64,000 bases of DNA from a virus. Its lineage: Duplodnaviria > Caudoviricetes. This document shows, in pieces, positions 2,897 through 17,649 of the stretch; position 1 is the stretch's first letter; each line of letters starts with the position of its first letter. A model generated the notes under the pieces. It searched no databases. It saw only the letters and a list, made by a program, of their open reading frames with translations, and had not been told where the DNA came from. The position numbers were made by a program, and so were the translations under genes. The stretch is from IMG/VR virus record IMGVR_UViG_2636415425_000001, positions 47,083 through 111,082 of that record; one strand, 5' to 3'.

Positions 2897-2949
2897 GCCG
2901 AAACTCCAATTTCTTTGCCGTTCTTGGCGTTCCGGACAAATTTTCCGGC

Positions 2950-3032
2950 CAGCCAAAAAAAATTGCGCGAATGAGCCCCCGTGCGGTCCGTGCCCCCGCC
3001 GGTTCCCAGACTTTCCGACCCCATACCCCTTG
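2950..3032 (-). other. Probable cos/packaging-initiation region
   Basis: Minus strand GGGGTATGGGGTCGGAAAGTCTGG...GGACCG...CTCATTCGCGCAATTTTTTTT just upstream of terS, resembling the G-rich/T-run tracts near cos in HNH-type cos phages. Confidence 0.55.
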
Positions 3033-3274
3033 GCCGAGCATGGCCGGCCGGCTTGCGGCGGGTTGGCGTGTCGTTAGCGCTGGCGTGCGATAGGCCGAGG
3101 CGCGTAGCCTGGCCGATTAGTGTCAACCCTGCAGGCTACATGCTGGCGCCGCTGGCGCCGCGCCGCGCGCGCGGTAGCCTTCCGCGCTTCTGTCTCGAAT
3201 AGCTGGCGCTAGTGGCGTTGCGCGGTTGACGTCGCGGCCTTGCATCGATCCGCCGAGGCCGAGGCCAGAAATGC

Positions 3275-3304
3275 AAAACCCGCCGAGGCTTCCCGCGGCG
3301 GGTT
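3275..3304 (-). terminator. Rho-independent terminator-like hairpin
   Basis: AACCCGCCG/CGGCGGGTT stem with a T-run on the minus strand. Confidence 0.5.
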
Positions 3305-3477
3305 GGCTGCAGTGACACTGCGCCGAATGCCTGTTCTGAATCATAACTGGAGTCGGACTGTCAAACCCGGTTCCGCTACTCGGCGGTGCATGACGGCGCC
3401 GCGCGGCCTCGGCCTCTCCCTCTTCTGTGATAGCTATTGCTTACGGACTGTTGAAACTCACGGAATAGGGAAACCCA

Positions 3478-3789
3478 ATGACTGCAGCAAAGGCGGATAA
3501 GACGGCGCCGAGGCAAGCCGGCAAAGGCCGCGCCTATGCCTCGGCCGGCGCCGCAATGCGAATCAGCGCGGCCGAATTCATGGCTTGGCAGGAAGAGCTA
3601 CGCCTATCCAATGGCGCCGCAGCTGCAGCGCTATTCATCTCGCCCAATACCGTTACAGCGGTGCGCGCGGAAGGCGGTAGCGCTGAACTGGCGCTGAAGT
3701 GTCGCGCCATCGCCGCCGGCCTTTCGCCAGCGCTACCCATGCAAGAGGCCTTTCGCCTCGGCCGAATTGCCGCGATCCTGCAGGAATAG
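3478..3789 (+). CDS. Small HTH (XRE-like) DNA-binding protein
   Basis: AEFMAWQEELRLSNGAAAAALFISPNTVT helix-turn-helix pattern. Confidence 0.6.
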   Translation: MTAAKADKTAPRQAGKGRAYASAGAAMRISAAEFMAWQEELRLSNGAAAAALFISPNTVTAVRAEGGSAELALKCRAIAAGLSPALPMQEAFRLGRIAAILQE

Positions 3790-3863
3790 AGCCGCAATTC
3801 CCTCTAGTGTGAGTCCGGCCGGGCTAAAGGCTATCTTTTTTCACAGAACAGCGAATTAGGGGA

Positions 3864-3892
3864 TTGACACGCGCCGCGCTTTATAGGCATGT
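3864..3892 (+). promoter_or_regulatory. Putative sigma70 promoter of the small-gene array
   Basis: TTGACA at 3864-3869 upstream of the first motif-A copy; -10 is degenerate. Confidence 0.45.
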
Positions 3893-3936
3893 GCGGTTTG
3901 TGAGGCGCGATTGTGCGCAAATCTAAAGGCCGCGAA

Positions 3937-4110
3937 ATGAACGCTTTCATTTCCTCTTGCATCGCAAATCCGGCTTTGGCCGGTTTCCTCTTTGCTGCGA
4001 TCTATTCCCTTTGCTGGGCTGGCCTAGCTCCCTTCCTGTATGCGCCGGCAAAGCCTCGGCGCCTCATGATCCGGCGCCGCGCGCGCCGTTCCAGTTCGCC
4101 GCGCCGCTAA
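3937..4110 (+). CDS. Small membrane protein
   Basis: Follows motif A; one hydrophobic segment then an Arg-rich tail. Confidence 0.6.
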   Translation: MNAFISSCIANPALAGFLFAAIYSLCWAGLAPFLYAPAKPRRLMIRRRARRSSSPRR

Positions 4111-4161
4111 CCCGGCAAGGCTCAACCCGCGCAATCGTGCGCAAATCGAAAAGGTAAGACA

Positions 4162-4347
4162 GTGACAAACTCAACCGTGAAAAGCCTCTTGCACCATGCG
4201 GCCGCGGCGATCCGGGTTGGAAACCTCACACTCGCATTGCGGCTTGTGTCCAATGCCGAATGCCTGGCCTCGGCGGACGAAACCATTTCCGCGGTGCGCC
4301 TCGGCCATATTCGCACCGCGCGGCTTGCGCTCGCAATCGCGAACTGA
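4162..4347 (+). CDS. Hypothetical protein
   Basis: GTG start after motif A/RBS. Confidence 0.65.
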   Translation: MTNSTVKSLLHHAAAAIRVGNLTLALRLVSNAECLASADETISAVRLGHIRTARLALAIAN

Positions 4348-4360
4348 GGAGCGCGCGACA

Positions 4361-4573
4361 ATGGCAACCGCCACAATCAAAAAGCGCGATCATGTCACCT
4401 ATGTTTGCAGCGCTGGTGTCACCGTTACCGCCATCGTTCGCACCGCGCACCGCGACGGTACCGCTACGGTTGAGGCCCGGCATATGCTGGACTCGGCCGG
4501 CAATATCCGCGGTTGCTATCTCGGTTACCGCTACCGTTTCGACGCCAGCGATCTAACCCGGGTTGAGGCATAA
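4361..4573 (+). CDS. Hypothetical small beta-rich (SH3-like?) protein
   Basis: GAGGAG RBS; MATATIKKRDHVTYV... Confidence 0.65.
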   Translation: MATATIKKRDHVTYVCSAGVTVTAIVRTAHRDGTATVEARHMLDSAGNIRGCYLGYRYRFDASDLTRVEA

Positions 4574-4578
4574 CGCAC

Positions 4579-4818
4579 ATGGCAAAGCCTGATGATTTGA
4601 CCGTGTACGCCTCGGCCGGATATGCCGCGCCGGATTCCACAAATCCGCACCTCTGGAGTAGCGCAACACACATTGCCTATTGCCTCGGCCAATGGTTTCA
4701 CGCAACCGGCCGGCCGGCGCCGCGCGCGGTCCGCATGTCCCGCGGCCTTTCGATCCGCGCAAACGATATGCTGATACGCTGGGATGCTAAAACCGGCGCA
4801 TGCGAGCGTATCAACTAA
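4579..4818 (+). CDS. Hypothetical protein
   Basis: GAGG RBS, tight packing. Confidence 0.65.
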   Translation: MAKPDDLTVYASAGYAAPDSTNPHLWSSATHIAYCLGQWFHATGRPAPRAVRMSRGLSIRANDMLIRWDAKTGACERIN

Positions 4819-4909
4819 CGCGATTTGCAGCCTATGCCGTGCACGTCACGGCATAACCGGCAAACCGCCGAAACCGCGCAATTGTGCGCAAACTGAAAAG
4901 GAAACCGCT

Positions 4910-5014
4910 ATGAAGTATCGCAAGCATGACTCCGACCGCCGGCCGATGGACAAGCGGACTCGGCGCGCCGCGGTGCGCAACGGAAAGCGCTCGTTTCTGA
5001 ATTCGTGCCTCTGA
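4910..5014 (+). CDS. 34-aa basic peptide
   Basis: Motif A + AAGGA RBS; MKYRKHDSDRRPMDKRTRRAAVRNGKRSFLNSCL. Confidence 0.55.
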   Translation: MKYRKHDSDRRPMDKRTRRAAVRNGKRSFLNSCL

Positions 5015-5025
5015 GGGATACGCCA

Positions 5026-5481
5026 ATGCGATGGACGTTTGACCAATGGTTGACGGCATGCGGCGCGGAAATGTCGCTCCAGTTTAATTGGACGCTGGAG
5101 CATTCCGGGTTGCGCGGTTTCGATTGGAGCGCGGCCTATGGCCGAGGCCTCACGGTCCGCGCGGCTTGTGACGCGGCTTACGATCATGTGCAGGAAACTG
5201 CACTAGACGGCGCCGTCTATTTCAATTGCTGCACTGGCAACACGGCGCCGGATTGGTCCGCCTTCCGTTCGCTCGAAATTGGCGGATGCAAAATGGTGAG
5301 CAATTCCGCTGGCGAAAGCTACGTGCACGGGAATCAGGCGCCGGACGATTCCGCTTTTTGGACTGTCTACGCTCGCGAGCATGACGGTTGCGCGCTGGCG
5401 ATTACCGATTGCGGAATCCTCACGGAAACCCACGCGATAGCGGAAACGCTTTCCCGGCTTTCCGGCCTTCCCCTGATTTGA
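5026..5481 (+). CDS. Hypothetical protein
   Basis: GAGGG RBS; Trp/Cys-rich globular sequence. Confidence 0.7.
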   Translation: MRWTFDQWLTACGAEMSLQFNWTLEHSGLRGFDWSAAYGRGLTVRAACDAAYDHVQETALDGAVYFNCCTGNTAPDWSAFRSLEIGGCKMVSNSAGESYVHGNQAPDDSAFWTVYAREHDGCALAITDCGILTETHAIAETLSRLSGLPLI

Positions 5482-5573
5482 CGTTGCGACACTGCGCAGC
5501 ATGTCTGCGCAGCACGGAACGCCAAAGCGGACCAACGCGCGATTGTGCGCAAACTTGAAAAGGACAACGGCCA

Positions 5574-5816
5574 ATGCCTTGGAAACTGGAACTGCAGGAA
5601 ACCCGGCGCGGTTGCCAAATGCTGGAAACGACACCGCGCTATGACGTTCTCTTGAACGGCGCGCGAACCGGCCAGCTGTATTTCAACACGCGCGGTTATG
5701 TCGGATATCTGCCGACGCCGGCCGGCGGAAAGATCGATATCGGAGAGAAGGGAATCACGGCGTTTCGTCGCGAGGTTTCCGCGCTCAACCGGGAAGCTAG
5801 GAACCTGGCCGGCTAA
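5574..5816 (+). CDS. Hypothetical protein
   Basis: Motif A + RBS. Confidence 0.75.
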   Translation: MPWKLELQETRRGCQMLETTPRYDVLLNGARTGQLYFNTRGYVGYLPTPAGGKIDIGEKGITAFRREVSALNREARNLAG

Positions 5817-5854
5817 CCCGCGCGATTGTGCGCAAATTGAAAGGACAGACTACA

Positions 5855-6046
5855 ATGGCACGATATGGCGGCGATCCGCGATGGATCATTACCAAATATC
5901 CGACCAATGACCGCAACGGCCGTTTCATCCCGGTAGGAACGCGCGCGTTCTACTATCCCGCTTCCAAACGCATGTTGACCGGCGCCGAGGCGGAACAGGC
6001 AAGCCGTGACTTTGAGGCCGCGCGCTTTGACGAAAGCATGGGGTAA
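5855..6046 (+). CDS. Hypothetical protein
   Basis: Motif A + RBS; MARYGGDPRWIITKY. Confidence 0.75.
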   Translation: MARYGGDPRWIITKYPTNDRNGRFIPVGTRAFYYPASKRMLTGAEAEQASRDFEAARFDESMG

Positions 6047-6051
6047 CGGAA

Positions 6052-6351
6052 ATGGATTTTGCAGCATTCCAAGCCGCCGCGGCCGAGCTGGATAACCGGA
6101 TGACAACGGCCGGCGCGCGCCTCGGCGCCGTGACAGAAAGCCTTGCGGCCGAGATGGGGATTCCGGCGCGCGGTCCGATGGGATTGACGCCCGATCGAAT
6201 TAAGTTCGATCCGCGATACCGGCTTGCGAAGGCCGCGGCCGATATCGCCTTTTCGGAACTGCGCGCATTCAATGCCCGGTATGCCCGGCGGTTCAAGAAA
6301 GAGATACGCGCCGCGATTGACGCGCGGCGCCGTGCCAAGGCAACGGCCTGA
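6052..6351 (+). CDS. Hypothetical helical protein
   Basis: Tight packing; RGPMGLTPDRIK. Confidence 0.7.
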   Translation: MDFAAFQAAAAELDNRMTTAGARLGAVTESLAAEMGIPARGPMGLTPDRIKFDPRYRLAKAAADIAFSELRAFNARYARRFKKEIRAAIDARRRAKATA

Positions 6352-6415
6352 CCTGGCCTCGGCCTTCCCTCAATTCTCGGCGCGATTGTGCGCAAATCAG
6401 AAAGGACAATGGACC

Positions 6416-7507
6416 ATGCAACAGGTTGATTTGATCGCGGCAAAGGCTGCAAAGGCAACGGAACGGCGCGCGCTCGCAATCGTCGCGTATGACAACGCAA
6501 CAGCGAATCCCGATTGCGCGAACTGGCGCGCGGTTGCCGATTTGCTTAGGCTCGCATTGCCGGCGCCGAAAGCCGGATCCGCCGCGGCCAAGATCCCGGA
6601 CGGCGCGGCCGATCATTGGGCGGACTATGTGATTCCGGCAAGCGCGACCAAACGTCTAGGCAAATCGCCTATTATCGTTGTCACGTTCTCTTGCGGCGCC
6701 GTGGTACGCGCGCCGGCAGTTTCCCTTCCCGGCAAGCCGGTCAATATCGGCCGCGGCTTGCGTGTTGCCTTTGCCTTCTACCGGGCACGGATCGCACGGG
6801 AATTCGGCAAGGCCTCGGCCATTGGTTCCGATTGTGTCGCGGTTCCGGCCATCGTTTCCGTTGCCTGTGACGTTGCCGGCGCCGAGTATTCCGCCGAGGA
6901 ATGCAACGCGCGAACGGCCGAATTCCGCCGCGGCCGTTTCGATCATATCGCGCTTTCGGCCGAGGCCTCGGCCTTGCCGGAAACCGCCGAGGCCGGCGAG
7001 TTGACGCGCGCCGACTTCTACCGCGGCCATTACCTCATTGCCTCGGCCGAGGCCGAGATTTTGGCCGGCGCCAATGAGGATCACGCGGCCGAGCTCGGCG
7101 CGCAGATTGCCGACTATCGGTCGCGTCTCGGCGGTATGGCCTGGCTGGAGATTGAAGCGCGGCGCCGCGCCATCATTCGCGCGGCCGAGGCCGAGGCGAA
7201 AGCCGCGGCAAAGGCCGAGGCCGAGGCCGGCCGGCGCGCCGAGCAAGAGGCCGAGGCCCGCGCAGCTGCAGCCGAGGCCGAGGCGTCGCGGTTGCGGCTT
7301 GTCGCGGACAATTCCGCCAGCGTCGAAACCGCGTCGGCTTCCCTCCCGGATACGGCCGATTCCCTCCCGGTTGCGCCCGCGCCCAAATCGATCGCGCCTA
7401 TCCCGGTTGCGCCTTCCCGCGCCGCGCGCTTCCTGGCCTCGTCATCGCTCGGCGCGCCTCGGCCTTCCCTCCCGGTTGCGCCTTTCTGCGCGATCCGCGC
7501 CAGCTAG
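6416..7507 (+). CDS. Hypothetical protein with Ala/Glu coiled coil and a repeat-derived C-terminal tail
   Basis: Motif A + RBS; the PDTAD/PVAP tail is encoded by motif-B DNA. Confidence 0.7.
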   Translation: MQQVDLIAAKAAKATERRALAIVAYDNATANPDCANWRAVADLLRLALPAPKAGSAAAKIPDGAADHWADYVIPASATKRLGKSPIIVVTFSCGAVVRAPAVSLPGKPVNIGRGLRVAFAFYRARIAREFGKASAIGSDCVAVPAIVSVACDVAGAEYSAEECNARTAEFRRGRFDHIALSAEASALPETAEAGELTRADFYRGHYLIASAEAEILAGANEDHAAELGAQIADYRSRLGGMAWLEIEARRRAIIRAAEAEAKAAAKAEAEAGRRAEQEAEARAAAAEAEASRLRLVADNSASVETASASLPDTADSLPVAPAPKSIAPIPVAPSRAARFLASSSLGAPRPSLPVAPFCAIRAS

Positions 7508-7522
7508 TCGGAGTCGCCAGCA

Positions 7523-7720
7523 ATGCGAGCCTATGGATTCGATATCTTGCCCGATGGCGCAAAGTTTCGCCTGATTGATCGCTGCGAATTCAACAATTGG
7601 GGCGAGCTATCGCCGCGGTTTGATACTCCAGCCGAGGCCGAGGAATACGCGCGCCGCTGCGACGAATTCAAGCGCGGCAAGCGTTCAAGCGTCGAATTGC
7701 GCGCTTGGGAACTGCACTAG
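7523..7720 (+). CDS. Hypothetical protein
   Basis: GGAG RBS; RFDTPAEAEEYA. Confidence 0.65.
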   Translation: MRAYGFDILPDGAKFRLIDRCEFNNWGELSPRFDTPAEAEEYARRCDEFKRGKRSSVELRAWELH

Positions 7721-7790
7721 GCCGCGGCGCGCCTCGGCCTCACGGAATGCAACACGCGCGATTGTGCGCAAACGGAAAGGAAAACAGACC

Positions 7791-8204
7791 ATGCGGAAGC
7801 CGAATCCCAACAAAGAGAAGGCCGCGCAGCTGGCGCGCCAGATTGCCAACATGACGGAAGAGCAGAAGGCGATTTGGCTGCAGCGCGCGCCGATCCTCAC
7901 CGCGGACGCGCGGCCGATATCCGGGAAAAATCACATGCTGGCGGCGATGCAATGCGAAGGCGCAACCATGCTCGGCGGCTTCAATCAATGGCTTTCCGCC
8001 GGTCGCGTGGTGCGCAAAGGCGAGTCCGCAATCTACATTTTCGCGCCGTCCGGCCGGCGCGCGACGGCCGAGACCTCGGCGGCGCCGAGCGCGGAAGGCG
8101 CCGCGGCCGAGGCCGTGGCGGAGTCCGTGCGGTTTATCCTGGTCCCGGTTTTCGACGTCTCGCAAACCGAGGAAAAGCCGGCCGAGCAAGCCGCCGCGGC
8201 CTAG
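7791..8204 (+). CDS. ArdC N-terminal-like ssDNA-binding domain protein (DUF1738-like)
   Basis: SGKNHML...GGFNQWLSAGRVVRKGESAIYIFAP...PVFDVSQTE; lacks the ArdC metallopeptidase domain. Confidence 0.8.
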   Translation: MRKPNPNKEKAAQLARQIANMTEEQKAIWLQRAPILTADARPISGKNHMLAAMQCEGATMLGGFNQWLSAGRVVRKGESAIYIFAPSGRRATAETSAAPSAEGAAAEAVAESVRFILVPVFDVSQTEEKPAEQAAAA

Positions 8205-8289
8205 TCCCGGGTACGGCCGATTTCCCCAATCCCTCGGCTACGGCCGATTTTCTCGGCGCAATTGTGCGCAAACCAAAGGAGCTAACGAC

Positions 8290-8559
8290 ATGCCGAAATT
8301 GATTCTCGATTGCCACCCCGCAACCGTCCAGGGCGATTGCATCTTGACGTCCATCATGCAAGCCGGCCCCGTGGCGCGCCTCGTTGTCGATATCGCGCGC
8401 GCCGCGGACGCCGAAAGGGAATTCGCGGATTACTGCAAGAGCATTGAGGCAACCGGCAAGCCGGCGAGCGTTTCAATGCGGATCGCCCGCGCCGATCGCT
8501 CCCCGCCTGGCTTCAAGAAACTGAAGGGCGCGGCCGGCTTTCACAGTGTCAATTGCTGA
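8290..8559 (+). CDS. Hypothetical protein
   Basis: Motifs B+A and AAGGAG RBS. Confidence 0.7.
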   Translation: MPKLILDCHPATVQGDCILTSIMQAGPVARLVVDIARAADAEREFADYCKSIEATGKPASVSMRIARADRSPPGFKKLKGAAGFHSVNC

Positions 8560-8569
8560 GGGCGCCGAA

Positions 8570-8764
8570 ATGACTTTCCGCGCCTATGACTTTCCTGCGG
8601 CCGTCATCCGGATTTATGCGGATGGCAGCTGCAGGGAGTTTCCGAAATGGTGCCTAATGATAAGCGTCGAACGCTCGCGCGCCTATGTCGCCAGTGCACT
8701 GCGCGAGTTGCGCAGCTATCGGCGGCGCCTCGCCGCTGAACCGCTTCGCCCCGCCGCCGCCTGA
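8570..8764 (+). CDS. Hypothetical protein
   Basis: GAGGG RBS. Confidence 0.55.
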   Translation: MTFRAYDFPAAVIRIYADGSCREFPKWCLMISVERSRAYVASALRELRSYRRRLAAEPLRPAAA

Positions 8765-8792
8765 TTTCCCATCACAGAACAAAGGAACCGTT

Positions 8793-9200
8793 ATGCATCT
8801 CACCTTGCCCCGCTCGCCGCTCGCCGCGCTCGTTAACGAGGCCTCAAAGTATCGATGGCGCATCCGCTACGCGCTGCAGCGCTACGGCGTAGCCTGGCGC
8901 TACGCTCGCCAGCGCTCAACCCGCGATGACGGATTGACGCTGCTTTTCGACGCCGAGCATATCGCCGGGATTTACGGCCTCGCCTGCTTGTCCGAGGAAT
9001 CCGTTTTGGATCGCGCGCGCGACCTATACGGCGACATTCCCGGTCTTGAGCGATGGGCGGCGGACGCTTGCGCGCGCGTCAACTCGAAACATGGCGGCGG
9101 CGATGGCGAAATGATCGGCGCGGCGGAAGATTGGGCGCTTGAACTGATGGCCGAATACGCCGCGCACGATGGCGTGACGCTGGCAGAACTCGCCGAGTAA
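8793..9200 (+). CDS. Hypothetical protein
   Basis: AAAGGA RBS. Confidence 0.7.
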   Translation: MHLTLPRSPLAALVNEASKYRWRIRYALQRYGVAWRYARQRSTRDDGLTLLFDAEHIAGIYGLACLSEESVLDRARDLYGDIPGLERWAADACARVNSKHGGGDGEMIGAAEDWALELMAEYAAHDGVTLAELAE

Positions 9201-9337
9201 CCCCCGGCGCCGGCTGATTCCCCAGCCGGCGCGACACCTCCCGACTACGGCCGATTTTGCGCGGTGGATGACGCGCGGACCTGGCCGCAGCCGCTCAACC
9301 ATCCGCGCAATAGTGCGCAAAGCGAAAGGACGCTCCC

Positions 9338-9571
9338 ATGAGAACGATTAAGCCCGCGACACGCGACAATGCAATCCAACTCAACAACGCAATAGCGCTG
9401 ATGAAGAAGGCCCGCGGCTGGTTGCGCGGCGCCGATAGCCCGAAAGCGTTGGAAGCGCTGCAAGCGGCGCTGAAGAGCGCCGAGGGCGCAAAGCGACACA
9501 TGCAGCACAGACTCAACCGGGCCAATCCGCCTGGCCTTCGCGCGCCCGGCGTCGATCACATGCCGGGATAG
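9338..9571 (+). CDS. Hypothetical helical protein
   Basis: Motif A + RBS. Confidence 0.7.
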   Translation: MRTIKPATRDNAIQLNNAIALMKKARGWLRGADSPKALEALQAALKSAEGAKRHMQHRLNRANPPGLRAPGVDHMPG

Positions 9572-9636
9572 CCTCCGGGCTACGGCTGATTTTCCACCCC
9601 TCGCATACGGCTAATTTTCACAAGGAGATCACCATC

Positions 9637-10542
9637 ATGAGCACAATCACGATTTGGACTTGCACCACGGAAGGCGACAACTGCGGGACCGAAACCACGG
9701 TGCACGCAACCCAAGGCGAGGCCGTGGACTACGTGCGCGCAGCGCTCCGCGATATTCTCAAAAACCGCAGACCCGAGCGCCTGGCAGCGATCGCGGCGGC
9801 GACCGCCGAGAACATCAAAGAACTCTGGGAAGATGCGGTTGACGGACCTTGCATCATCGAAGAGCAGTCCGTGACGCTTCCGCCCTTTGCGGTCGCGATC
9901 TACGAAACCCGCTACGGCGACGAAACGCGCCTCTACGCCAACACGGACGACGCGCAGACCTGGCGCCGCGAGATCGCCGCCGAGAACTGGGCGGCGCGGA
10001 TGGACGAGGAACGGCCGGCCGATGCCGACGAGACCGCAGACGCCTATTTCCATCACGTCGGCGAGGCGCGCGGCGACTTCTTCCGGGTCGAAGAGCTGGA
10101 GATGATCGGCGGCACAGTCCCGGTTGCGCCTGCCCAGGACTGGCGCCAGATCGCCCGCGACTTGGCCGGCGCGCTCGATGCATGCACCCATCAGATTGGC
10201 CAGATGCGCGGCATGTTCGACGACGAGGACGGCACGATTGCGGAAGCAGTTTCCGACGCTGACGCCGCCTCCGAAGCCTACCGCCGAGCCGCCGCCGGCC
10301 TCCCGGCTGCGCCCGCGCTGCAGCCCATCGGTCAAGATGACCGCGCCTGCTCGGAAGGCTGGGGCCTCTTCGAGAACAGCGACACAGGCCGGCTTGAGAT
10401 TCAGGCCGACGCCGAGTCCTCAATCTTTGTGCGTGACGGCGTGAGCCACGACGACGAGGCCGAGGCATTCGTAAAAGCAAAGGCCGCCGAGGGCAGCGAG
10501 TACCACGCCGCGGCGCTCGCCCGTGTCGGTACGGCCCAATAG
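9637..10542 (+). CDS. Acidic, apparently multi-module hypothetical protein
   Basis: Motif B pair + AAGGAG RBS; Asp/Glu-rich. Confidence 0.75.
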   Translation: MSTITIWTCTTEGDNCGTETTVHATQGEAVDYVRAALRDILKNRRPERLAAIAAATAENIKELWEDAVDGPCIIEEQSVTLPPFAVAIYETRYGDETRLYANTDDAQTWRREIAAENWAARMDEERPADADETADAYFHHVGEARGDFFRVEELEMIGGTVPVAPAQDWRQIARDLAGALDACTHQIGQMRGMFDDEDGTIAEAVSDADAASEAYRRAAAGLPAAPALQPIGQDDRACSEGWGLFENSDTGRLEIQADAESSIFVRDGVSHDDEAEAFVKAKAAEGSEYHAAALARVGTAQ

Positions 10543-10601
10543 GCCCGGCTACGATCGATTTTCCACCCCCGAGCTACGGCCGATTTTGAGGAGCAGCACA
10601 C

Positions 10602-10793
10602 ATGCACTTGAGCGAGACGACAAACGGAAAGCTGGCGGAGGTCTCAACCCAGATTGAGGAGCTAATCCGCTGGGCTGAAGCGGACGCCGAGCACGCCCGC
10701 GAAAACGACGCGCGTCAAACCGCGCGAGATGATCGGAGCCGCGCCGCGAAGCTCCGCAAGGCGCTCGCCCTGGTGCGAGCGTGCGAGCGATAG
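10602..10793 (+). CDS. Small helical protein
   Basis: Motif B pair + GAGGAG RBS. Confidence 0.65.
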   Translation: MHLSETTNGKLAEVSTQIEELIRWAEADAEHARENDARQTARDDRSRAAKLRKALALVRACER

Positions 10794-10870
10794 CCACTTG
10801 ACACCGCCGGCAATCTGACTCATTGAACAACCCCCGCGCGATTGTGCGCAAATTGAAAGGATGAAGACAC

Positions 10871-13234
10871 ATGCAGCATTCCGCCACCTATTCGCCCGAT
10901 GATAACAAGCTGCGCCTTTACCCGGCGCACCGGCTCGACGCCGAGGAGCACGCGCGCGTAAAGGCGCACGGCTTCAAATGGGCGCCGCGTCAAGAATTGT
11001 TCGTTGCGCCGATGTGGACGCCAGAACGCGAAGACCTGCTGATTGAGATGTGCGGCGAGATCGGCGACGAGGACAAGAGCCTGGTAGAGCGCGCCGAGGA
11101 TCGCGCCGACCGTTTCGACGAATACAGCGACAAGCGGCTGTCGGAAGCTAACCGCGCGCGCGAGGCCGTGGACCAGATCGCGGAGCGGTTCGCGATGGGG
11201 CAGCCGATTTTGGTCGGCCATCATTCCGAGAAGAGCGCACGCAAGGACAAGGAGCGGATGGACTCCGGCATGCGCAAGGCAATCAAGCTGTGGGACACTT
11301 CCAAATATTGGACGGCCCGCGCCGAGGGCGCCATCGCCCACGCGAAATACAAGGAACTGCCGGCGGTGCGTCATCGCCGCATCAAGGGCATTGAGTCCGA
11401 TAAGCGGAAGCTGGAGCGCCAGCAGGCCGAGACCGAAAGGCAGCTGAAAGCCTGGCAGATCGTCGCCGGCATCACGGACCCGGAGAAGCAGCGCGCGGCC
11501 GGTTTGGCCGTGGCCAACACCGGCGGTTATTGGTCGATGTCGTTTCCGCTGGCCGACTATCCGCGCGACCCGCCGGCCTCGCAGTATGAGGGACCGATGG
11601 GCCTTTGGTCGGCGATTGAAGGGAACGTCATCACCGCCGCCCAGGCCGCCGCTATCGCAATTCCTGGCCTGGAGCGCGGCGGGCCTCGGCGGGAGCGCTG
11701 GATTGCGCACTATGACAACCGGCTGGCCTATGAACGGGCGATGTTGGCCGAGCAGATCGGCGCGGAGGCCACTGCCAACCCGCTTGCAGACCGTTTCGCC
11801 TTCGCCGTTGGTGGTCAGGTGCAAACCCGCCGCAGCGACGATTGGCTTACGATTGTGAAGGTCAGCAAGGGCGCTAACGGCTCGGTTTCCAGCATTCAAA
11901 CCGCAGCCCCGTCAGGATCGCGCGGGCGCGGCGTTTACTGGAAGGTCGAAAGCGTCCGCGACTATCGCGCGCCGACCGCCGAGAACGTCGCCGCGGCGAA
12001 GGCCGCCACGAAGCTCCCGCCGATTTGCAACTATCCCGGCGAGGGATTCCGCGAAATGACTGAAGCCGAATGGAAGGCGCGCCGGCAGTTCTCGGATTTC
12101 TCCTATATCGGCACGGTGAAGGCGACCGAGACCCAAGGCGCGCACCGCGTCCGCCAGATGCCGACGCCCGGCGAGTTCTGGAAGGCGCAAAAGGTTTTCA
12201 TCACGGATGCAAAGCGCGTCGATCCGCCCAAGATCGCGCCGGCACCAGAGCCGACCGAACCGGCCGAATTTGTGGCTGAGTATGTCGCGCCGCCCGCGGT
12301 CGATCTTGACGCCATGCTGGCCACGGTCGGCGAAATCGTGGGCGCGCCGGTCGAGGCCGCGGCCCAGGACGAGCCCGAGGCCGCGCCGGCGCTGGCCCCG
12401 GATGCGCCCGCGGAAGAACCGCGACGCCTCGGCGACGCCAAGGCGGAGGCGCAGCGCATCGGCGCGGAGATCATCACCGGACTCGGCCAATTCCGTGTTG
12501 GCCTCGGCCAGCACGTTACCGACTGGTGCGACGACGAGGCGACCGCCTGGCGGCAGTTCTGCGGACTGGCTGGCGTGCCGTTTGAGGCCGAGGCCGTGCC
12601 GGCTGATCTGCGGCCGCGCGTTCTCGCCCCGGTCCCGGATACGGCCGATTTGCCGGCGCCGACCGCGGCGGACAGTTTCGAGGCCATGCGGGCGATGTTG
12701 AAGGGCGGCGGCGTGCAAGTCGTCGTCGCGCCTCAACTCTTCCCGACGTCGGACGAACTCGCCGCGGACGTTGCGGAGGCCGCGGACATCCGGCCCGGGC
12801 AACGCATCTTGGAGCCGAGCGCCGGAACCGGCGCCCTGATCGAGGCTGCGCGCAACTGCGCCAATGATCTGCAGGTGGTGGCGGTCGAGATCAACACGAA
12901 GCTGTGCCATGCATTGGCGGACCGCTTCACCGGCATGCAAATGACCGTCATCAATGCGGACTTTCTCGACATGGCCGGCGTCACGGACAAGTTTGATCGG
13001 ATCATCATGAATCCGCCTTTCGAGCGCGGCGCCGATATCAAGCATATCGAGAACGCGCGGCGGTTTCTGAAGCCTAACGGCCGCCTGGTCGCCATCTGTG
13101 CCGACGGCCCGCGCCAGCGCGCGAAGCTCGAACCGATCGCGGTGGAGTATCGCGCCCTGCCCGCGGGATCCTTCAAGGCTGCTGGCACCATGGTCAACAC
13201 GGCGTTGGTCGTGATCGACGGGCCGCCGGGATAG
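10871..13234 (+). CDS. DUF3560-domain protein fused to an amino-methyltransferase
   Basis: ATYSPDDNKLRLY, GQPILVGHHSE (DUF3560); C-terminal QLFPT, ILEPSAGTG, IIMNPPF. Confidence 0.88.
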   Translation: MQHSATYSPDDNKLRLYPAHRLDAEEHARVKAHGFKWAPRQELFVAPMWTPEREDLLIEMCGEIGDEDKSLVERAEDRADRFDEYSDKRLSEANRAREAVDQIAERFAMGQPILVGHHSEKSARKDKERMDSGMRKAIKLWDTSKYWTARAEGAIAHAKYKELPAVRHRRIKGIESDKRKLERQQAETERQLKAWQIVAGITDPEKQRAAGLAVANTGGYWSMSFPLADYPRDPPASQYEGPMGLWSAIEGNVITAAQAAAIAIPGLERGGPRRERWIAHYDNRLAYERAMLAEQIGAEATANPLADRFAFAVGGQVQTRRSDDWLTIVKVSKGANGSVSSIQTAAPSGSRGRGVYWKVESVRDYRAPTAENVAAAKAATKLPPICNYPGEGFREMTEAEWKARRQFSDFSYIGTVKATETQGAHRVRQMPTPGEFWKAQKVFITDAKRVDPPKIAPAPEPTEPAEFVAEYVAPPAVDLDAMLATVGEIVGAPVEAAAQDEPEAAPALAPDAPAEEPRRLGDAKAEAQRIGAEIITGLGQFRVGLGQHVTDWCDDEATAWRQFCGLAGVPFEAEAVPADLRPRVLAPVPDTADLPAPTAADSFEAMRAMLKGGGVQVVVAPQLFPTSDELAADVAEAADIRPGQRILEPSAGTGALIEAARNCANDLQVVAVEINTKLCHALADRFTGMQMTVINADFLDMAGVTDKFDRIIMNPPFERGADIKHIENARRFLKPNGRLVAICADGPRQRAKLEPIAVEYRALPAGSFKAAGTMVNTALVVIDGPPG

Positions 13235-13309
13235 TCCCGGCTGCGCCCTCCCGCTTACGACCGATTTCCAAACCCTCCCGGCTACGATCGATTTTGAAAG
13301 GAACACAGC

Positions 13310-13804
13310 ATGCCTGACCGTTTCGAATACACTTCGGAAGAGCGGATGTTGCTCGCCCGCCTGGCCCAAGGCCGGCAAACCGACCGGGATTGCATCCCTG
13401 AGCGCGTGCTCGTCAATCGAGGCATGGCGCGCCGGGTCGATCCCGGAGAGATCGAGATCACACCAGCCGGTCGCGACGAGCTCGCACGGATCGCCTCGAG
13501 CGCTGCTTTCTCCGGTCCAATCGACGGCGCACGCGCCGGCATCATCGAGGCGCTCGGCGGCGCGTTCGCAACGCCTCCGGCTTCGCCACCGCCTGGCCGG
13601 CAACTGACCGACGATGAGAAGGCCTTCATCGCTCGCATGGCGCCGCACGTCATGGCCGGCAAGACCCTCGAGGAAGCCGGGGCGGCCGTCCTCCAGGATG
13701 ATGAACGCTTGTGGCTGACCGCCATGGAGGATTCGGACGTCGGCCGCGCGATCCGCGGCGAGCTCGCCAAGGCGACATACGTCGCAGCGCGCGCGAAGCC
13801 ATAG
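13310..13804 (+). CDS. Hypothetical protein (possible N-terminal winged helix)
   Basis: Motif B + RBS; EITPAGR. Confidence 0.7.
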   Translation: MPDRFEYTSEERMLLARLAQGRQTDRDCIPERVLVNRGMARRVDPGEIEITPAGRDELARIASSAAFSGPIDGARAGIIEALGGAFATPPASPPPGRQLTDDEKAFIARMAPHVMAGKTLEEAGAAVLQDDERLWLTAMEDSDVGRAIRGELAKATYVAARAKP

Positions 13805-13877
13805 GCGCGGCTGCCCCGACTACGACTGATTTCCCATCACCCCCTCGGCTACGGCCGATTTGAAAGGAGAATTACCC

Positions 13878-14249
13878 ATGCTCGTCACCGTCAAGGCCGG
13901 CGCCAAGGTGGAAGGCCACACCTTCAGCCAGGACTCGAACCAAAACTTTGGGCGGGAGAAAGCCGAAGGCCTGATCAAAGATGGCCGCGCAAGGCCCGCG
14001 GCGTTCGACGCCGAGGGAATCTGCCGGATCAACACGCGGTTCGAAGCATGGCTCAACGAACATGGCGCGCTCGCGATCGGGTCTTGCGGCGATGCCTTTC
14101 TGCATCTCTCGCCGGAATTTCCGTTGGCTTACTTGCCCGAGGCACTGCAAGCCTATCAAGCGGGGCACCACCACGGCATGAGTTACGGCCGCAGCAAACT
14201 GCAGAACGAGCTTCTGAACTTGCTCGGGGCCGAGCCATGCAAGATATGA
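13878..14249 (+). CDS. Hypothetical protein
   Basis: Motif B pair + AAAGGAG RBS. Confidence 0.7.
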   Translation: MLVTVKAGAKVEGHTFSQDSNQNFGREKAEGLIKDGRARPAAFDAEGICRINTRFEAWLNEHGALAIGSCGDAFLHLSPEFPLAYLPEALQAYQAGHHHGMSYGRSKLQNELLNLLGAEPCKI

Positions 14250-14524
14250 CGGGGGAAGAGACAGTCACCGCGGCCGGCTACAGGGTTGCCACTCGCGCCG
14301 AGTTCGATGCCGCCACCGACGTGCCCGCGGGCGTGCGCCTGGTGGCCGATCGCCTCTTCAAACGCTGGGGCGGCGACTTCGTTGTTTACGATCCGGCCGG
14401 CGGTGATGACGGCTGGCTGCTGATCGACGACGACCGCGAGCAGATCATAGGCGAGACCGTGGAACACCTCGGACGGCTCAAACCTGAGCCGACTGCGCCG
14501 CCGGCACAAGGCTCGCTGTTTTGA
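14246..14524 (+). CDS. Hypothetical protein
   Basis: ATGA overlap; ends QGSLF (clamp-binding-like motif). Confidence 0.6.
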   Translation: MTGEETVTAAGYRVATRAEFDAATDVPAGVRLVADRLFKRWGGDFVVYDPAGGDDGWLLIDDDREQIIGETVEHLGRLKPEPTAPPAQGSLF

Positions 14525-14560
14525 CACCCGGATACGATCGATTTTGAAAGGAGACCGAGC

Positions 14561-14734
14561 ATGCCGCGGAACTGGATCGTGCGCGAGCGCCACCCATTCG
14601 ATGATGGATACTGGGCGCGCTATGACGGCAAACGCCGCCCCAACAAGTCATTGACCGAGAAACGTGAGGGCTGGGAGGCTTGCGACCGCGAGATTGCCGA
14701 AGAAGCCCACGACGCTGAGGAGGCTGTGCTATGA
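14561..14734 (+). CDS. 57-aa protein not in the ORF track
   Basis: Motif B + AAAGGAG; MPRNWIVRERHPFDDGYWARYDGKRRPNKSLTEKREGWEACDREIAEEAHDAEEAVL. Confidence 0.65.
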   Translation: MPRNWIVRERHPFDDGYWARYDGKRRPNKSLTEKREGWEACDREIAEEAHDAEEAVL

Positions 14735-15099
14735 GGCAGGTCCGCCGCGTCCCCGCCGATTGGCAGCACCCTCGCAATTCCTGGGGTCGATATACGCCGC
14801 TCCTTGAGTCCGCCCCGGATGCACCCGCGCCCGATCTTTCCCGCTGCATGCCGGCATGGCCGGAGGCGGAGCGCACCCACTGGCAGTTGTACGAGACCAC
14901 CAGCGCCGGCACGCCGGTTTCGCCGCCCTGCCCGTCGCCCGAGGCCTTGGCCAAATGGCTTGCCGACCACCATGTGGAGGCCGCACCAGGTTTCACCGGA
15001 ACGGAGGCGCAATGGCTCGGCGCCATCAAGCGCGGCGGCGTCATTCCGCCGGTGATGACCGTCGGCAAGCAGCAGGTCTCGCCGCTGGATTACACCTGA
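14731..15099 (+). CDS. Phage hypothetical protein
   Basis: RRVPADWQHP...WQLYETTSAGTPVSP. Confidence 0.75.
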   Translation: MRQVRRVPADWQHPRNSWGRYTPLLESAPDAPAPDLSRCMPAWPEAERTHWQLYETTSAGTPVSPPCPSPEALAKWLADHHVEAAPGFTGTEAQWLGAIKRGGVIPPVMTVGKQQVSPLDYT

Positions 15100-15193
15100 T
15101 CGGCCGGGACTCCCGGCTACGATCGATTTTGTGCTACCCCCTCGGCTACGGCCGATTCCGGGCGATTGTGCCCAACCGGAAAGGAACTCTCAG

Positions 15194-15517
15194 ATGTCGC
15201 CCCCCAGATTTGTTCACCGCAAGATCTCGGCCGAGGACTTCAAGGCCGAGTTGGCGAAGCAGGGCATGTCGGTGCCGGCGTTCGCCCGTGTCTGGTGCCA
15301 GAACCTTTCGACCGTCACGAAATGGGCCAACGGCGGGAACGATATCCCGACCTGGGTGCCGATCGCGCTGACCATGATGACGCTGCCAAACGCTCACGGG
15401 ACCGCCCGTATGGCGGCGGCGGCGATGATCGAAGAAGATCGGCTGCATCCCGAGCTCGGAAAATTCCCGTACCAGAAGCTTCGGCAGATGCCGGCGGACG
15501 ACGAGATCGAGGAATAG
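15194..15517 (+). CDS. XRE-like HTH regulator, last gene of the array
   Basis: FKAELAKQGMSVPAFARVWCQNLSTVTKWANGGNDIP. Confidence 0.7.
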   Translation: MSPPRFVHRKISAEDFKAELAKQGMSVPAFARVWCQNLSTVTKWANGGNDIPTWVPIALTMMTLPNAHGTARMAAAAMIEEDRLHPELGKFPYQKLRQMPADDEIEE

Positions 15518-15523
15518 TCCCGG

Positions 15524-15739
15524 CTACGATCGATTTTGCGTGCCCCGGCTGCGCCTTTTCTTCGCCGCGTGCCGTTTCTTGGGCGGCGCTCGCTTCGCCG
15601 CTGGCGCCGGCGGCGCGTCCTTCGCTGCGGCCGCGGCGTCGAGGGCATCGAGCTCCCGCTTCTGCGCCTGCATCCGTTCCCACCTGGCTTCGCGTTGAGC
15701 GCGCAGCGCGTCGGCGCGCGGTGACGGCTCCCTGCTCAT
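15524..15739 (-). CDS. Small basic hypothetical protein
   Basis: Coupled to the upstream ORF. Confidence 0.45.
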   Translation of the reverse strand: MSREPSPRADALRAQREARWERMQAQKRELDALDAAAAAKDAPPAPAAKRAPPKKRHAAKKRRSRGTQNRS

Positions 15740-15924
15740 GACGGCGACCTTTGCCAGAACCAGCGGCGCCGGCGCAACAGCACGATTGCCTCTTGCGATC
15801 GGCCAGCAACGCTGATCGGTCGCCAACCGTCCGCAATTCGGCTGTTTAACTCTCGCCGCAACCATCCCTGCGACTGCGTGGAGTAAATGCTTTGGAGATC
15901 GTATTCGTAGCGATAGAGCAGCAT
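15736..15924 (-). CDS. Hypothetical protein
   Basis: AGGAG RBS; MLLYRYEYD. Confidence 0.5.
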   Translation of the reverse strand: MLLYRYEYDLQSIYSTQSQGWLRRELNSRIADGWRPISVAGRSQEAIVLLRRRRWFWQRSPS

Positions 15925-15935
15925 CGGTCCGACTC

Positions 15936-16202
15936 CTAACCTGCGTCCGTGGGGACTTCGCCGACCTCGAGCATGACCGGCGGATGGCTCTGCGAGATGA
16001 TCCGGAGGTGCACCGGCGCGCCGGCGTTCAACCGGGCCAACTCTTCCGCCGTCGGCATCCACGCGGACGACAGCGAGGGCAGCGAATTATTCAGCACCTC
16101 AACGCGGATCGGCAGATCCATGCACTTGCCATCCCTCTCCTCGTCCCAGTTCCTCGGCGCCTCCAGCACCTTGTTGCAGCCGGAGATCCTTGCGATTTCC
16201 AT
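15936..16202 (-). CDS. Phage hypothetical protein
   Basis: APRNWDE...SAWMPTAEELARLNAG...HPPV. Confidence 0.75.
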   Translation of the reverse strand: MEIARISGCNKVLEAPRNWDEERDGKCMDLPIRVEVLNNSLPSLSSAWMPTAEELARLNAGAPVHLRIISQSHPPVMLEVGEVPTDAG

Positions 16203-16212
16203 TAGTACCCTC

Positions 16213-16557
16213 CTACGATCGCATCCGGTCCGCTCGAGCCTGCAATCCCTTGCGGACGTTGTGCTCGGCGCATTTGCAGGCGCCGTTGTTCAGGTCTAGG
16301 GCGCGGGATCGATCGTCCCTGATCTCGACGACATGATCGGCGTACATCTGGTCGCCGTTGGCCCGGCTGCGCTCGCAGCGGACGCCATCCTCGACATGCT
16401 CGCAGCGCCAGCCGGCGCGCTTCTTGACCTGCAGCGCCCACCGCTGGTGCTCGGCAGTCTGGTAGTGCGGGTCCGCGCGCTTCTCCGGAGGCTTCACCTT
16501 CCTGGTGTCGAGGGTCGGAACGCGCGGGCCCAGCGTGGGAATTCGAGACCGCTTCAT
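16213..16557 (-). CDS. HNH endonuclease (gp74-like packaging cofactor)
   Basis: KRAGWRCE...ADHVVEI...LDLNNGACKCAEHN. Confidence 0.85.
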   Translation of the reverse strand: MKRSRIPTLGPRVPTLDTRKVKPPEKRADPHYQTAEHQRWALQVKKRAGWRCEHVEDGVRCERSRANGDQMYADHVVEIRDDRSRALDLNNGACKCAEHNVRKGLQARADRMRS

Positions 16558-16742
16558 TTCTTTTCCCCGCGCCGCGGCCCGAACATCTTCCGGCCCATAG
16601 ATCGCACCATTTCGCGCTGGTCCCATGTCATCACGTCGTTGTCGACATCGAGCAGGAGGAGACCATACTCACGCCAAACCCGCTGTTTCGTTTCCAGCGG
16701 CGTCTCGCGGCTATTGGGGGCAAACCGTCCGAGGGACATCAA
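16554..16742 (-). CDS. Hypothetical protein
   Basis: Coupled to HNH. Confidence 0.6.
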   Translation of the reverse strand: MMSLGRFAPNSRETPLETKQRVWREYGLLLLDVDNDVMTWDQREMVRSMGRKMFGPRRGEKK

Positions 16743-16749
16743 TCCAACC

Positions 16750-17649
16750 CTACTTCTGCAAGCCCATGCCGGCGGCGATCCTCAGCCGCCGAACCGCGTC
16801 CCATGTCCGGTCGACGATCTCGACGCCGTCGTAAAGCTTCACCAGCGCGTTCAGCGCGACCCGGAAGTCCGAATTGTTGGTGCGGTGCTCCTCGCCGCCA
16901 TGCATCCGGACGTCCTCGCTGCTGCACTCGAGCCCGATCCTGACCAGCAGGATGTCGAACTGCCGGCGGCCGAGCCGGCGTTCCACTTCCCTGAGCCGTC
17001 CGCTGGCCTCGAGGGCGATGGTGTGCGAGGGCGAGCCGCCGCCGCCACCATCGACCTTGTCCTGCAGCGCGAAGCCGCGCGACCCATGGAAGGTGGCCAG
17101 ATCGAAGTCGCGCCGAAAGCGATCCGCGGCGCTCTGGCGCAGCTTGTCCTCGGGATCCGCGGCGCCGCGCTTCTTGGACTCCGTGAGATTGAGGTGCGAT
17201 GCACGAACCGTGTCGACCAGCACGTTGAGCCTTGGATTTTGCGGGTCCGGGATGGTGTGCTTGCGCCGACCGCTGGCCAGGCGCTCGGCTTCATCGGCCG
17301 CCTTCTGCTCTTTCTTGGTGAGTGGCTTGCCCCAGAGATTCAGGGGATCGACGGAGTCAGTTGTCCCGCTCCGGAAGCCTTGCTGGAACAGCTTGTTCCG
17401 ATGCAGCGCCTCTTTCACACGACGAGCGCCCTCGGTGTCGCGGTCCATCAGGTACTCGACCACGAGTTCCTGGACGATGCGCTGCCGGCGTCGCGTCTCC
17501 TCAAACAGGAGTTGCCCCTCATAGGTCAGCCCCTTGTACGACTCCATCGGCCGCGCGCGCCGGATGTCGCGCATGAAAGCACGGGCTCGGCGATCGCGCT
17601 CCTTGTCGACGTGTACCGGTGCGACATCCGTGATCTGTGCTTGAGACAT
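16750..17649 (-). CDS. Probable late-gene regulator (antiterminator Q position)
   Basis: Position at the end of the early operon; AADRFRRDF...KVDGGGGG pattern. Confidence 0.55.
   Translation of the reverse strand: MSQAQITDVAPVHVDKERDRRARAFMRDIRRARPMESYKGLTYEGQLLFEETRRRQRIVQELVVEYLMDRDTEGARRVKEALHRNKLFQQGFRSGTTDSVDPLNLWGKPLTKKEQKAADEAERLASGRRKHTIPDPQNPRLNVLVDTVRASHLNLTESKKRGAADPEDKLRQSAADRFRRDFDLATFHGSRGFALQDKVDGGGGGSPSHTIALEASGRLREVERRLGRRQFDILLVRIGLECSSEDVRMHGGEEHRTNNSDFRVALNALVKLYDGVEIVDRTWDAVRRLRIAAGMGLQK

Follow-up and report, generated by a model that had tools for sequence, protein, structure and literature searches.

The window analyzed here is a stretch of 64,000 nucleotides of prophage DNA (C1 78661-142660 of an 8.27-Mb genome of about 64% G+C), which contains an array of small genes whose distal half holds many copies of a short repeat, motif B. 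We conclude that B is a functional, phage-private gene-end element of about 20 bp, which stands after the stop codons of gene modules and is oriented along transcription. As to how it acts, we tentatively favor binding of B, as double-stranded DNA, by a putative phage protein. Phage early regions with anti-restriction and counter-defense genes evolve fast, and their regulation and reshuffling are poorly known beyond a few model phages. The array provides a clean case in an alphaproteobacterial prophage lineage: a gene-start element, A, and the gene-end element, B, frame variable modules, and the gene-end element is under selection at the nucleotide level even where it is translated.

Motif B in its full form is a non-palindromic sequence of 22 nt with the consensus CYCCCGGCTACGRYCGATTT(T). 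Seventeen full copies were found in the window, scoring 25.4-34.9 bits against a position matrix built from the copies, together with one decayed copy at 9200 (13.8 bits) and seven copies of a half-motif, B' (TCCCGGYTGCGCC, searched as CCCGG[CT]TGCGCC), at 7366, 7402, 7471, 10119, 10302, 13236, and 15544. All of them, full, decayed, and half, are on the plus strand within 7342-15555, and the B matrix found no further site of at least 10 bits on either strand of the 64 kb. The initial annotation had counted about 23 copies in one orientation, and these are now resolved into the three classes just given. The shorter pattern CCCGGNTRCG occurs 18 times in the window, always on the plus strand, against an expectation of 2.99 ± 1.84 (none of 100 shuffles reached 18), and 16 of the 18 sites lie within 7345-15553. 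Enrichment and strand bias were also checked across the whole 8.27-Mb genome, as the annotation had proposed, and B proved to be polar and private to the array rather than equally frequent and unbiased. No B of at least 20 bits occurs outside the array, the best site there scoring 19.3 bits. The regular expression for the 11-mer core has 17 matches in the array and 19 scattered elsewhere in the genome on both strands; B' has 23 on both strands of the genome, seven of them in the array.

A scan for the pair pattern gave multiple matches in three Bradyrhizobium genomes and in seven IMG/VR proviruses, and nine sister proviruses were gathered by way of the methyltransferase protein encoded in the array, the last helix-turn-helix (HTH) gene of the array, and coordinates. 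Gene calls in these relatives are rough, and copies in sister phages are not independent of each other. The ten arrays (the window and its nine sisters) together contain 123 B copies that score at least 17 bits, every one of them on the gene strand; the relatives carry 10-14 copies each. The core was also searched in five whole proviruses (43-132 kb), where it matched 48 times on the gene strand, never on the other strand, and never in a reversed control, with 7-11 matches per provirus within 5-6.5 kb.

The distribution of B beyond these phages is narrow. Two short contigs from soil metagenomes carry a copy of the last HTH gene that is 64-68% identical, plus 5 and 4 further co-oriented B copies. 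Nine more distant phages (L072-L080), whose methyltransferases are 43-55% identical, contained neither B nor A, nor any dispersed repeat analogous to them. Of 300 further species genomes from the genus, only three had clusters of B. The multi-copy contigs in IMG/VR were the same nine proviruses, and the approximately 30 single matches there are about what chance would give by our own estimate. Isolated phages and plasmids gave no DNA match. A search of the literature on intergenic repeats of Bradyrhizobium prophages and intergenic motifs of rhizobiophages, with most subscription journals outside it, returned nothing on B. A host-wide repeat, of the repetitive extragenic palindrome or miniature inverted-repeat transposable element type, was considered and rejected, given the lack of copies of at least 20 bits outside the array and the few genomes of the genus with clusters.

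The spacers of the distal array follow a common order: stop codon, 0-3 nt, B1, a C-rich stretch of 3-10 nt, B2, and then either the Shine-Dalgarno (SD) sequence GAAAGGAG directly or element A and the SD. B begins only at 7342, that is, in the distal half of the array, and element A runs from 3902 to 15178. Across the ten proviruses, 64 copies of B are single or first in a pair; 28 of these start 0-3 nt past a stop codon, and 45 start within 12 nt of one. Several copies had been described in the initial annotation as starting 1-3 nt after a stop codon, and this was confirmed at 8206, 9575, 10544, 13236, 14527, and 15519. At the other end of the motif, GATT is followed in 13 distinct copies by TT and then directly by the SD, which thus lies 2 nt past B. 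We could not tie B to the gene family on one side of it: the inconsistent families numbered 6 for the upstream gene and 5 for the downstream gene, out of 30, and with rough gene calls the comparison was uninformative.

Many copies of B are paired. Seven direct pairs had been noted earlier; six of these stand as full B+B pairs, with TACG-to-TACG distances of 27, 25, 25, 27, 29, and 29, and the seventh (15519/15544) is instead a full B followed by a half-copy. The members of a pair are ordered, position -5 being mostly C in the first copy (24 of 28 distinct pairs) and mostly T in the second (19 of 28). The start-to-start spacing was always odd, being 19, 21, 23, 25, 27, 29, or 37 in the 28 distinct pairs and in three metagenome pairs, and one orthologous pair is spaced 23, 25, or 27 depending on the phage.

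Within B, two strongly conserved blocks, CCGGCTACG and GATTT, surround a variable center, and nearly all of the changes at positions 4-7 are transitions (68 of 72 distinct copies). Of its three forward frames, one has TAG at the start of the motif and the second acquires TGA with the next bases; the third is open, reads P-(D/A)-T-(A/I)-D, and is the very one in which copies inside genes are translated. The in-gene copies are, as the initial annotation had described them, the full copies at 7345 and 12634, which read PDTAD, and the half-copies at 7366, 7402, 7471, 10119, and 10302, which read PVAP or PAAP. We considered TAG as a component of the motif and rejected it: TAG is the codon before B in 22 of 45 close cases, compared with 28% in 2565 long open reading frames (ORFs) of the genome, a mild excess among non-independent cases.

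Orthologous copies of B retain their own variants across phages, with TACG, GATT, and the C at -6 fixed, which points to purifying selection on each copy rather than homogenization between copies. The spacer before the last HTH gene is mostly identical in eight proviruses, including a run of 31 columns over B1 and the spacer, and the flanking genes vary. Conservation is poor in the linker that contains the copy in the methyltransferase gene. In an alignment of this gene from ten phages, the third base is kept in only 50 of 245 (20%) of the degenerate codons whose amino acid is invariant, but in 4 of 4 within B, and the 11-nt core at 12640-12650 is the longest invariant run in the 2.5-kb alignment. 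The earlier proposal that selection acts on the DNA sequence is borne out by this copy, with its unvarying synonymous positions. In four relatives (L070, L081, L087, and L088), the same linker (12600-12700 in the window) contains a full translated B pair, followed by GAGG and an in-frame ATG; this suggests that the DUF3560-methyltransferase gene is the product of two genes joined over what had been a spacer. In gene 6416-7507, the C-terminal tail (window 7340-7507) consists of one B and three B' (SLPDTADSLPVAP...PIPVAP...SLPVAP), is kept in three relatives, and looks like read-through into a former spacer. Strings of GCCTCGGCC and GGCCGAGGCC are very frequent in and around the same gene (window 6350-7300 and elsewhere).

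Our preferred explanation, a leading candidate rather than a probable answer, is that B is bound by a phage protein as double-stranded DNA and serves as a polar block or insulator on transcription, in the manner of a stoperator, and secondarily as homology for exchange. A putative phage-encoded, sequence-specific protein would recognize B as double-stranded DNA and, once bound, would form a polar roadblock or insulator for elongating RNA polymerase, as at the stoperators of mycobacteriophages. The block would separate the modules and keep the distal array quiet while the protein is present, for example in a lysogen. As a by-product, the 22-50 bp shared at every module border would give homologous recombination a foothold, and this foothold would explain the gain, loss, and replacement of modules exactly there. 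We take B to be the site of a phage-encoded protein because it is long, linear, bipartite, and phage-private, and the lack of a comparable site in the host chromosome argues against a host factor. A linear, bipartite, and unstructured site of about 20 nt would be typical of DNA recognition by a two-headed protein (compare excerpts of PMC9283540). The length of B, its lack of structure, its persistence in a translated gene, and its place upstream of TTGACA/G boxes all favor a role in DNA. If this explanation is true, the stoperator principle extends beyond the actinobacteriophages.

The stoperators of cluster A mycobacteriophages (L5, TipsytheTRex), as described in excerpts of PMC9283540, are short asymmetric sites that are oriented with transcription and occur in more than 20 copies per phage in short intergenic spaces. 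The same excerpts give them a length of 13 bp, a distribution over the whole genome on both arms, an additional use as operators in promoters, and binding by a monomeric repressor that combines an HTH with a Stoperator domain; the block is lost when the site is reversed. B is similarly short, asymmetric, phage-private, present in many mostly intergenic copies, and oriented along transcription (123 of 123). Several points nevertheless set B apart from stoperators or weigh against our preferred explanation. B, in contrast to stoperators, occupies only 5-8 kb of a single operon in proviruses of 43-132 kb, and it occurs on only one direction of transcription, so that a correlation of orientation on both arms is not visible. 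Its length is 20-22 bp versus 13 bp, its host is alphaproteobacterial, and it often occurs as ordered pairs, whose spacing of 19-37 bp lacks helical phasing. No B overlaps a TTGACA-type box, our candidate promoters; the nearest copy ends 4-13 nt upstream. XRE folds, which the HTH proteins of the array may have, usually bind palindromes as dimers, a mode of binding better suited to A than to B, and an analogy with Aca regulators (discussed below) suits A better than the asymmetric B. Finally, the contact of B with stop codons and with the SD, the copy past the last gene, and the resemblance of A to an RNA hairpin are as natural for an mRNA element, or more so.

The TTGACA/G boxes lie 4-13 nt downstream of the last B in six of the ten proviruses (relative and position: L067:9927, L068:9927, L069:9927, L071:9930, L087:6303, and L088:6528). 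In these six relatives, A starts 9-10 nt past a weak -10 sequence (3-4 of 6 matches). The window has a box at 10798-10803, which an extra small gene (10602-10793) separates from the B pair, and its -10 match is weaker still. Such an arrangement could act as an internal promoter driving the methyltransferase gene.

Nearly as likely as a polar DNA block is a role for B in mRNA, which we regard as a serious possibility, still short of a probable one. B would then be an intercistronic or 3'-untranslated region (3'-UTR) element of the polycistronic message, for a phage protein or for an endoribonuclease cutting GAUUUU, and would set the ends of transcripts, their stability, or the translation of the next cistron, with A as a 5' stabilizer or translational operator. 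Every copy is in the sense orientation, and the closeness to stop codons (0-3 nt in 28 of 64) and the SD directly past 13 distinct copies are in keeping with such a role. So are the copy past the last gene, which precedes a terminator-like hairpin, and the transitions at positions 4-7, which would yield G.U or C.A oppositions. If B does work in RNA, it is a new intercistronic signal; either way, B and A are usable as search handles for unannotated anti-defense modules in related phages.

Against the mRNA role, B has no conserved structure, and a linear RNA site of 20 nt would be unusual for a protein. Folding of the B-bearing spacers gave z-scores of -0.7 to +1.0 in seven of nine spacers and -2.4 to +1.0 overall, the value of -2.4 being due to other hairpins. 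Among the 72 distinct copies, 68.9% of cells were paired versus 69.8% in shuffles, with 467 of 500 shuffles as high, and there was no covariation. We rejected B as a conserved RNA hairpin, which finds no support given this folding at shuffle level and the lack of excess pairing or covariation. We also considered complementarity of B to 16S rRNA and rejected it, since the values (z -0.8 and -1.0) were not above those of shuffles. No Rfam family was found in 3000-17000 at E ≤ 1, with one chance match at 0.6 elsewhere in the stretch. The five whole proviruses contain no complementary copy that could belong to an antisense RNA (0 reverse matches), and Pfam and PHROG revealed no recognizable RNase in the array. 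Selected copies within a translated gene are also awkward for a 3'-UTR function.

The start-associated sequences (SAS) and extended SAS (ESAS) of cluster K mycobacteriophages offer another comparison at the level of translation. In excerpts of PMC3203893 they are 13 bp long, contain the SD, lie 3-7 bp before start codons, and have no known function. Like them, B is asymmetric, occurs in one orientation and in a non-structural region only, is tied to translation signals, and is conserved across sub-lineages beside unrelated genes. B differs in being fixed to stop codons and only sometimes touching the SD, and the better counterpart of SAS/ESAS is element A together with the SD.

Element A sits 3-6 nt ahead of GAAAGGA and the start codon, and had 97 matches on the plus strand and 9 on the minus strand of the ten proviruses. 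Its stem is paired in 349 of 350 cells in 70 of 73 distinct copies (three deviant rows were excluded), values reached by none of 500 shuffles, with the qualification that the copies were chosen by similarity to the consensus, which favors this result. The closing pair alternates between G.U (45) and A-U (25), and there is one CG-to-GC compensatory change, in four orthologues of the A before the last HTH gene, representing a single event. This pairing, in the immediate neighbor of B, also speaks for an mRNA role. The two metagenome contigs carry a variant A hairpin, GGCA-AUCG-UGCC. A probably works as a hairpin in the 5' UTR, as an operator bound by an Aca-like HTH protein, or as both. Excerpts of PMC13551039 report that Aca-type HTH regulators of anti-defense operons bind promoter DNA as well as structured 5'-UTR RNA, which adds to the case for an RNA-level function. 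The array is like acr-aca operons in that an HTH gene ends an operon of small anti-defense-type genes, and in that an inverted repeat able to fold as a 5'-UTR hairpin, element A, is located beside the ribosome-binding site. It is unlike them in that A is repeated before about 11 genes per phage and not only in the leader, and the likeness concerns A, not B.

The array begins and ends with an HTH-type gene. These two are candidate regulators, and their products look like single XRE domains. The first gene had no Pfam match. The last gene is flanked by B-B-A upstream and by B downstream; the best PDB matches to its model were all XRE-family HTH proteins (HigA2, MqsA, the controller proteins known as C-proteins, and Aca2), at E values of 0.02-0.4 and none at 0.001 or below. 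None of its 62 homologues has an assigned name. Paralogy of the two HTH genes was not shown by BLASTP (E 0.48).

Gene maps of the relatives have a conserved core with variable modules, most of which lie past the methyltransferase gene, up to the gene that precedes the last HTH gene. Almost every provirus has its own set of genes in this stretch, B lies at the module borders, and pairwise BLAST blocks stop at the motifs. One ORF is replaced exactly between an A-plus-SD unit and B, a block of six genes found in one phage and missing from another lies between a B pair and the following A, and a mosaic joint with L068 is located at the 9572-9618 pair. We collected 1091 ends of homology blocks, not independent of one another, from all ordered pairs of the ten arrays. 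Ends within 12 nt of B made up 18.9% (206 of 1091), in 4.3% of the bases; another 11.7% were at A plus the ribosome-binding site (4.3% of bases), 31% were in other spacers and gene edges (13%), and 38% were inside genes (78%). A conserved motif by itself extends a block to the far edge of the motif. That sister-phage homology breaks preferentially at B is partly supported by these figures, as phage mosaic joints generally favor gene borders and the two are not fully separable.

These observations raise the possibility that B has no regulatory role and is kept only as a recombination scaffold, a junction like a PeSL element or an attC site, for shuffling small anti-defense genes. Besides the variable gene sets, the block ends, and the precise ORF replacement, a PDDEXK exonuclease-like protein encoded by the prophage would fit this idea, which we nonetheless think unlikely. 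The invariant TACG and GATT, the free choice of purine or pyrimidine between them, and the retention of copy-specific variants indicate that particular bases are recognized, beyond mere homology. Inverted repeats are absent, no dedicated recombinase adjoins the array, and selection for evolvability alone is a weak force. The evidence supports the view that the part played by B at the joints of module exchange is a consequence of its presence and not its primary function.

Cassette junctions of the PeSL type had been suggested in the initial annotation, next to polar protein-loading sites for translocation, protection, or antitermination, which drew no support here. PeSL elements of T4-type phages, in excerpts of PMC2839356 and PMC4122927, join a sigma-70 early promoter to a stable stem-loop terminator and flank ORFans in hyperplastic regions. 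The junction half of the suggestion fits what we see, in that B is a conserved intergenic repeat at the borders of variable modules, and the breakpoints, indels, and replacements between sister phages are enriched or jointed at the repeats. The other half does not, as B lacks both a sigma-70-like promoter and a stable stem-loop (z near 0; 5-bp stem in 12 of 72 distinct copies). The array also shares with integrons its promoter-poor small ORFs in one orientation and a repeat right after each stop codon. Integron attC sites are imperfect inverted repeats, which fold and are cut by the integron integrase. B is instead a direct and unstructured repeat with no IntI-type gene beside the array; the only integrase match (61164-62561) is 45 kb off and of the phage-integrase type. 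A bolder proposal, which we consider improbable, is that A and B are the cis-acting parts of an undescribed phage cassette grammar, in which a start-associated hairpin (A) and a stop-associated polar element (B) would delimit each anti-defense module. A dedicated phage protein reading B would then both stop read-through and target recombination, resulting in an integrase-free, integron-like swapping of modules between temperate phages.

Less likely still, the B copies could be weak intrinsic terminators or attenuators, in which a UCGGC-UACG-GCCGA hairpin and a U-tract end the transcripts of modules. The T at -5 that is frequent in second members of pairs (19 of 28) would permit a stem of 5 bp that closes a UACG loop and precedes UUUU, and B stands at module ends ahead of TTGACA boxes. 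A terminator scan detected the copy at 8234-8247, as well as a weak hairpin and T-run at 15538-15563 in which the terminal B' takes part. B does have the U-tract, but only a minority of copies could form the hairpin, with all five pairs in just the 12 distinct copies given above, only the three inner pairs in 25 of 72, and no covariation. Single copies such as 14524 cannot form the stem, and the invariant loop and tail would be needless for a terminator. Failing the defining features of stoperators, PeSL elements, SAS, attC sites, and terminators, B is best placed among the phage-private, oriented intergenic control repeats.

In HNH-terminase phages, the end of the genome is expected between the HNH endonuclease and small terminase genes. 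The 12-kb array is wedged between these two genes, both on the minus strand, and by this analogy may be located at the first-entering end of the virion DNA. B could mark strand-specific DNA events there, such as nicks, fork barriers, or entry or packaging signals, and this position and the strict polarity of B are compatible with such a function. We consider it very improbable, because nothing about such a signal would require it to follow the stop codon and ribosome-binding site of each gene in turn.

Promoters account for most of the conserved, oriented repeats found between phage genes, for example in halovirus HF2, but promoters for a phage-specific polymerase or sigma factor are the least credible reading of B and can nearly be dismissed, given the SD 2 nt past the motif in 13 distinct copies, the copy past the last gene, and the lack of a promoter-like (-35/-10) match within any copy; no T7-type RNA polymerase was found in the genome, a weak test because the control genomes were also empty.

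Table 1. Copies of motif B along the window, followed by element A, the candidate regulators, and other prophage genes
Feature	Position	Strand	Remarks
B in 3' tail of gene 6416-7507 (PDTAD)	7342-7363	+	29.1 bits; conserved in L067, L068, L069
Half-copies after the 7342 B (PVAP)	7365-7378, 7401-7414, 7470-7483	+	
Tandem pair B1+B2 directly past TAG of the ArdC-N gene	8203-8251	+	28.9, 31.6 bits; then hairpin A 8253-8274
Decayed copy (9200-9221) and full copy (9237-9258) after TAA of gene 8793-9200	9200-9258	+	decayed copy 13.8 bits
Tandem pair after TAG of gene 9338-9571	9572-9618	+	31.0, 25.4 bits; second copy abuts SD of gene 9637-10542
Half-copies in gene 9637-10542	10118-10131 (PVAP), 10301-10314 (PAAP)	+	
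Tandem pair after TAG of gene 9637-10542	10541-10587	+	30.1, 28.0 bits; second copy abuts SD of gene 10602-10793; orthologous pairs in 7 relatives
B in gene 10871-13234, linker between DUF3560 and methyltransferase domains (VPDTADL)	12631-12652	+	27.4 bits; in all 10 proviruses
Half-copy (13235-13248) and full copies (13247-13268, 13274-13295) after TAG of methyltransferase gene	13235-13295	+	last copy abuts SD of gene 13310-13804
Tandem pair after gene 13310-13804	13812-13862	+	26.6, 29.9 bits; second copy abuts SD of gene 13878-14249
Single B after TGA of gene 14246-14524	14524-14545	+	31.3 bits; abuts SD of gene 14561-14734
Tandem pair ahead of hairpin A 15157-15178 and HTH gene 15194-15517	15109-15159	+	34.9, 27.5 bits
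Terminal B past last array gene, then B'	15516-15555	+	33.7 bits
Element A, GCGCR-ANNG-TGCGC, 11 copies of 22 nt (start positions)	3902, 4126, 4873, 5534, 5817, 6377, 7753, 8253, 9302, 10833, 15157	+	
First array gene, likely XRE/Cro-type HTH	3478-3789	+	Atlas leads only: feature scores 0.90-0.93, TM 0.51-0.55 to HTH_3 clusters
Last array gene, XRE-type HTH fold predicted	15194-15517	+	AlphaFold2 model, pLDDT 84.8, five helices
Array of about 26 small genes, 12 kb	3478-15517	+	between terminase and replication modules
ArdC N-terminal domain gene	7791-8204	+	Pfam ArdcN 2.6e-06; PHROG anti-restriction 2.9e-06
DUF3560 + methyltransferase fusion gene	10871-13234	+	Pfam DUF3560 9.6e-34, several methyltransferase domains
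Portal	1-549	-	prophage gene
Large terminase	559-2241	-	prophage gene
Small terminase	2441-2956	-	prophage gene
Block right of array: HNH endonuclease, DnaB, primase, several DNA methylases, DnaN		-	
HNH endonuclease	16213-16626	-	
Farther right: LexA-type DNA-binding protein, GcrA homologue, DnaA-C HTH protein, Dam, integrase	integrase 61164-62561		
DNA methyltransferase-type genes outside the array (N6_N4, C5, MT-A70, Dam)	20860-22179, 25311-27659, 31302-32135, 55347-56252		
GcrA homologue and DnaN clamp	33332-33934, 27722-28870		

Most of the array genes belong to no known family in Pfam or PHROG, the exceptions being the ArdC-N gene and the DUF3560-methyltransferase gene. With the latter, the array fusion, the prophage has five DNA methyltransferase-type genes (Table 1), and it also encodes a homologue of GcrA and a DnaN clamp of its own.

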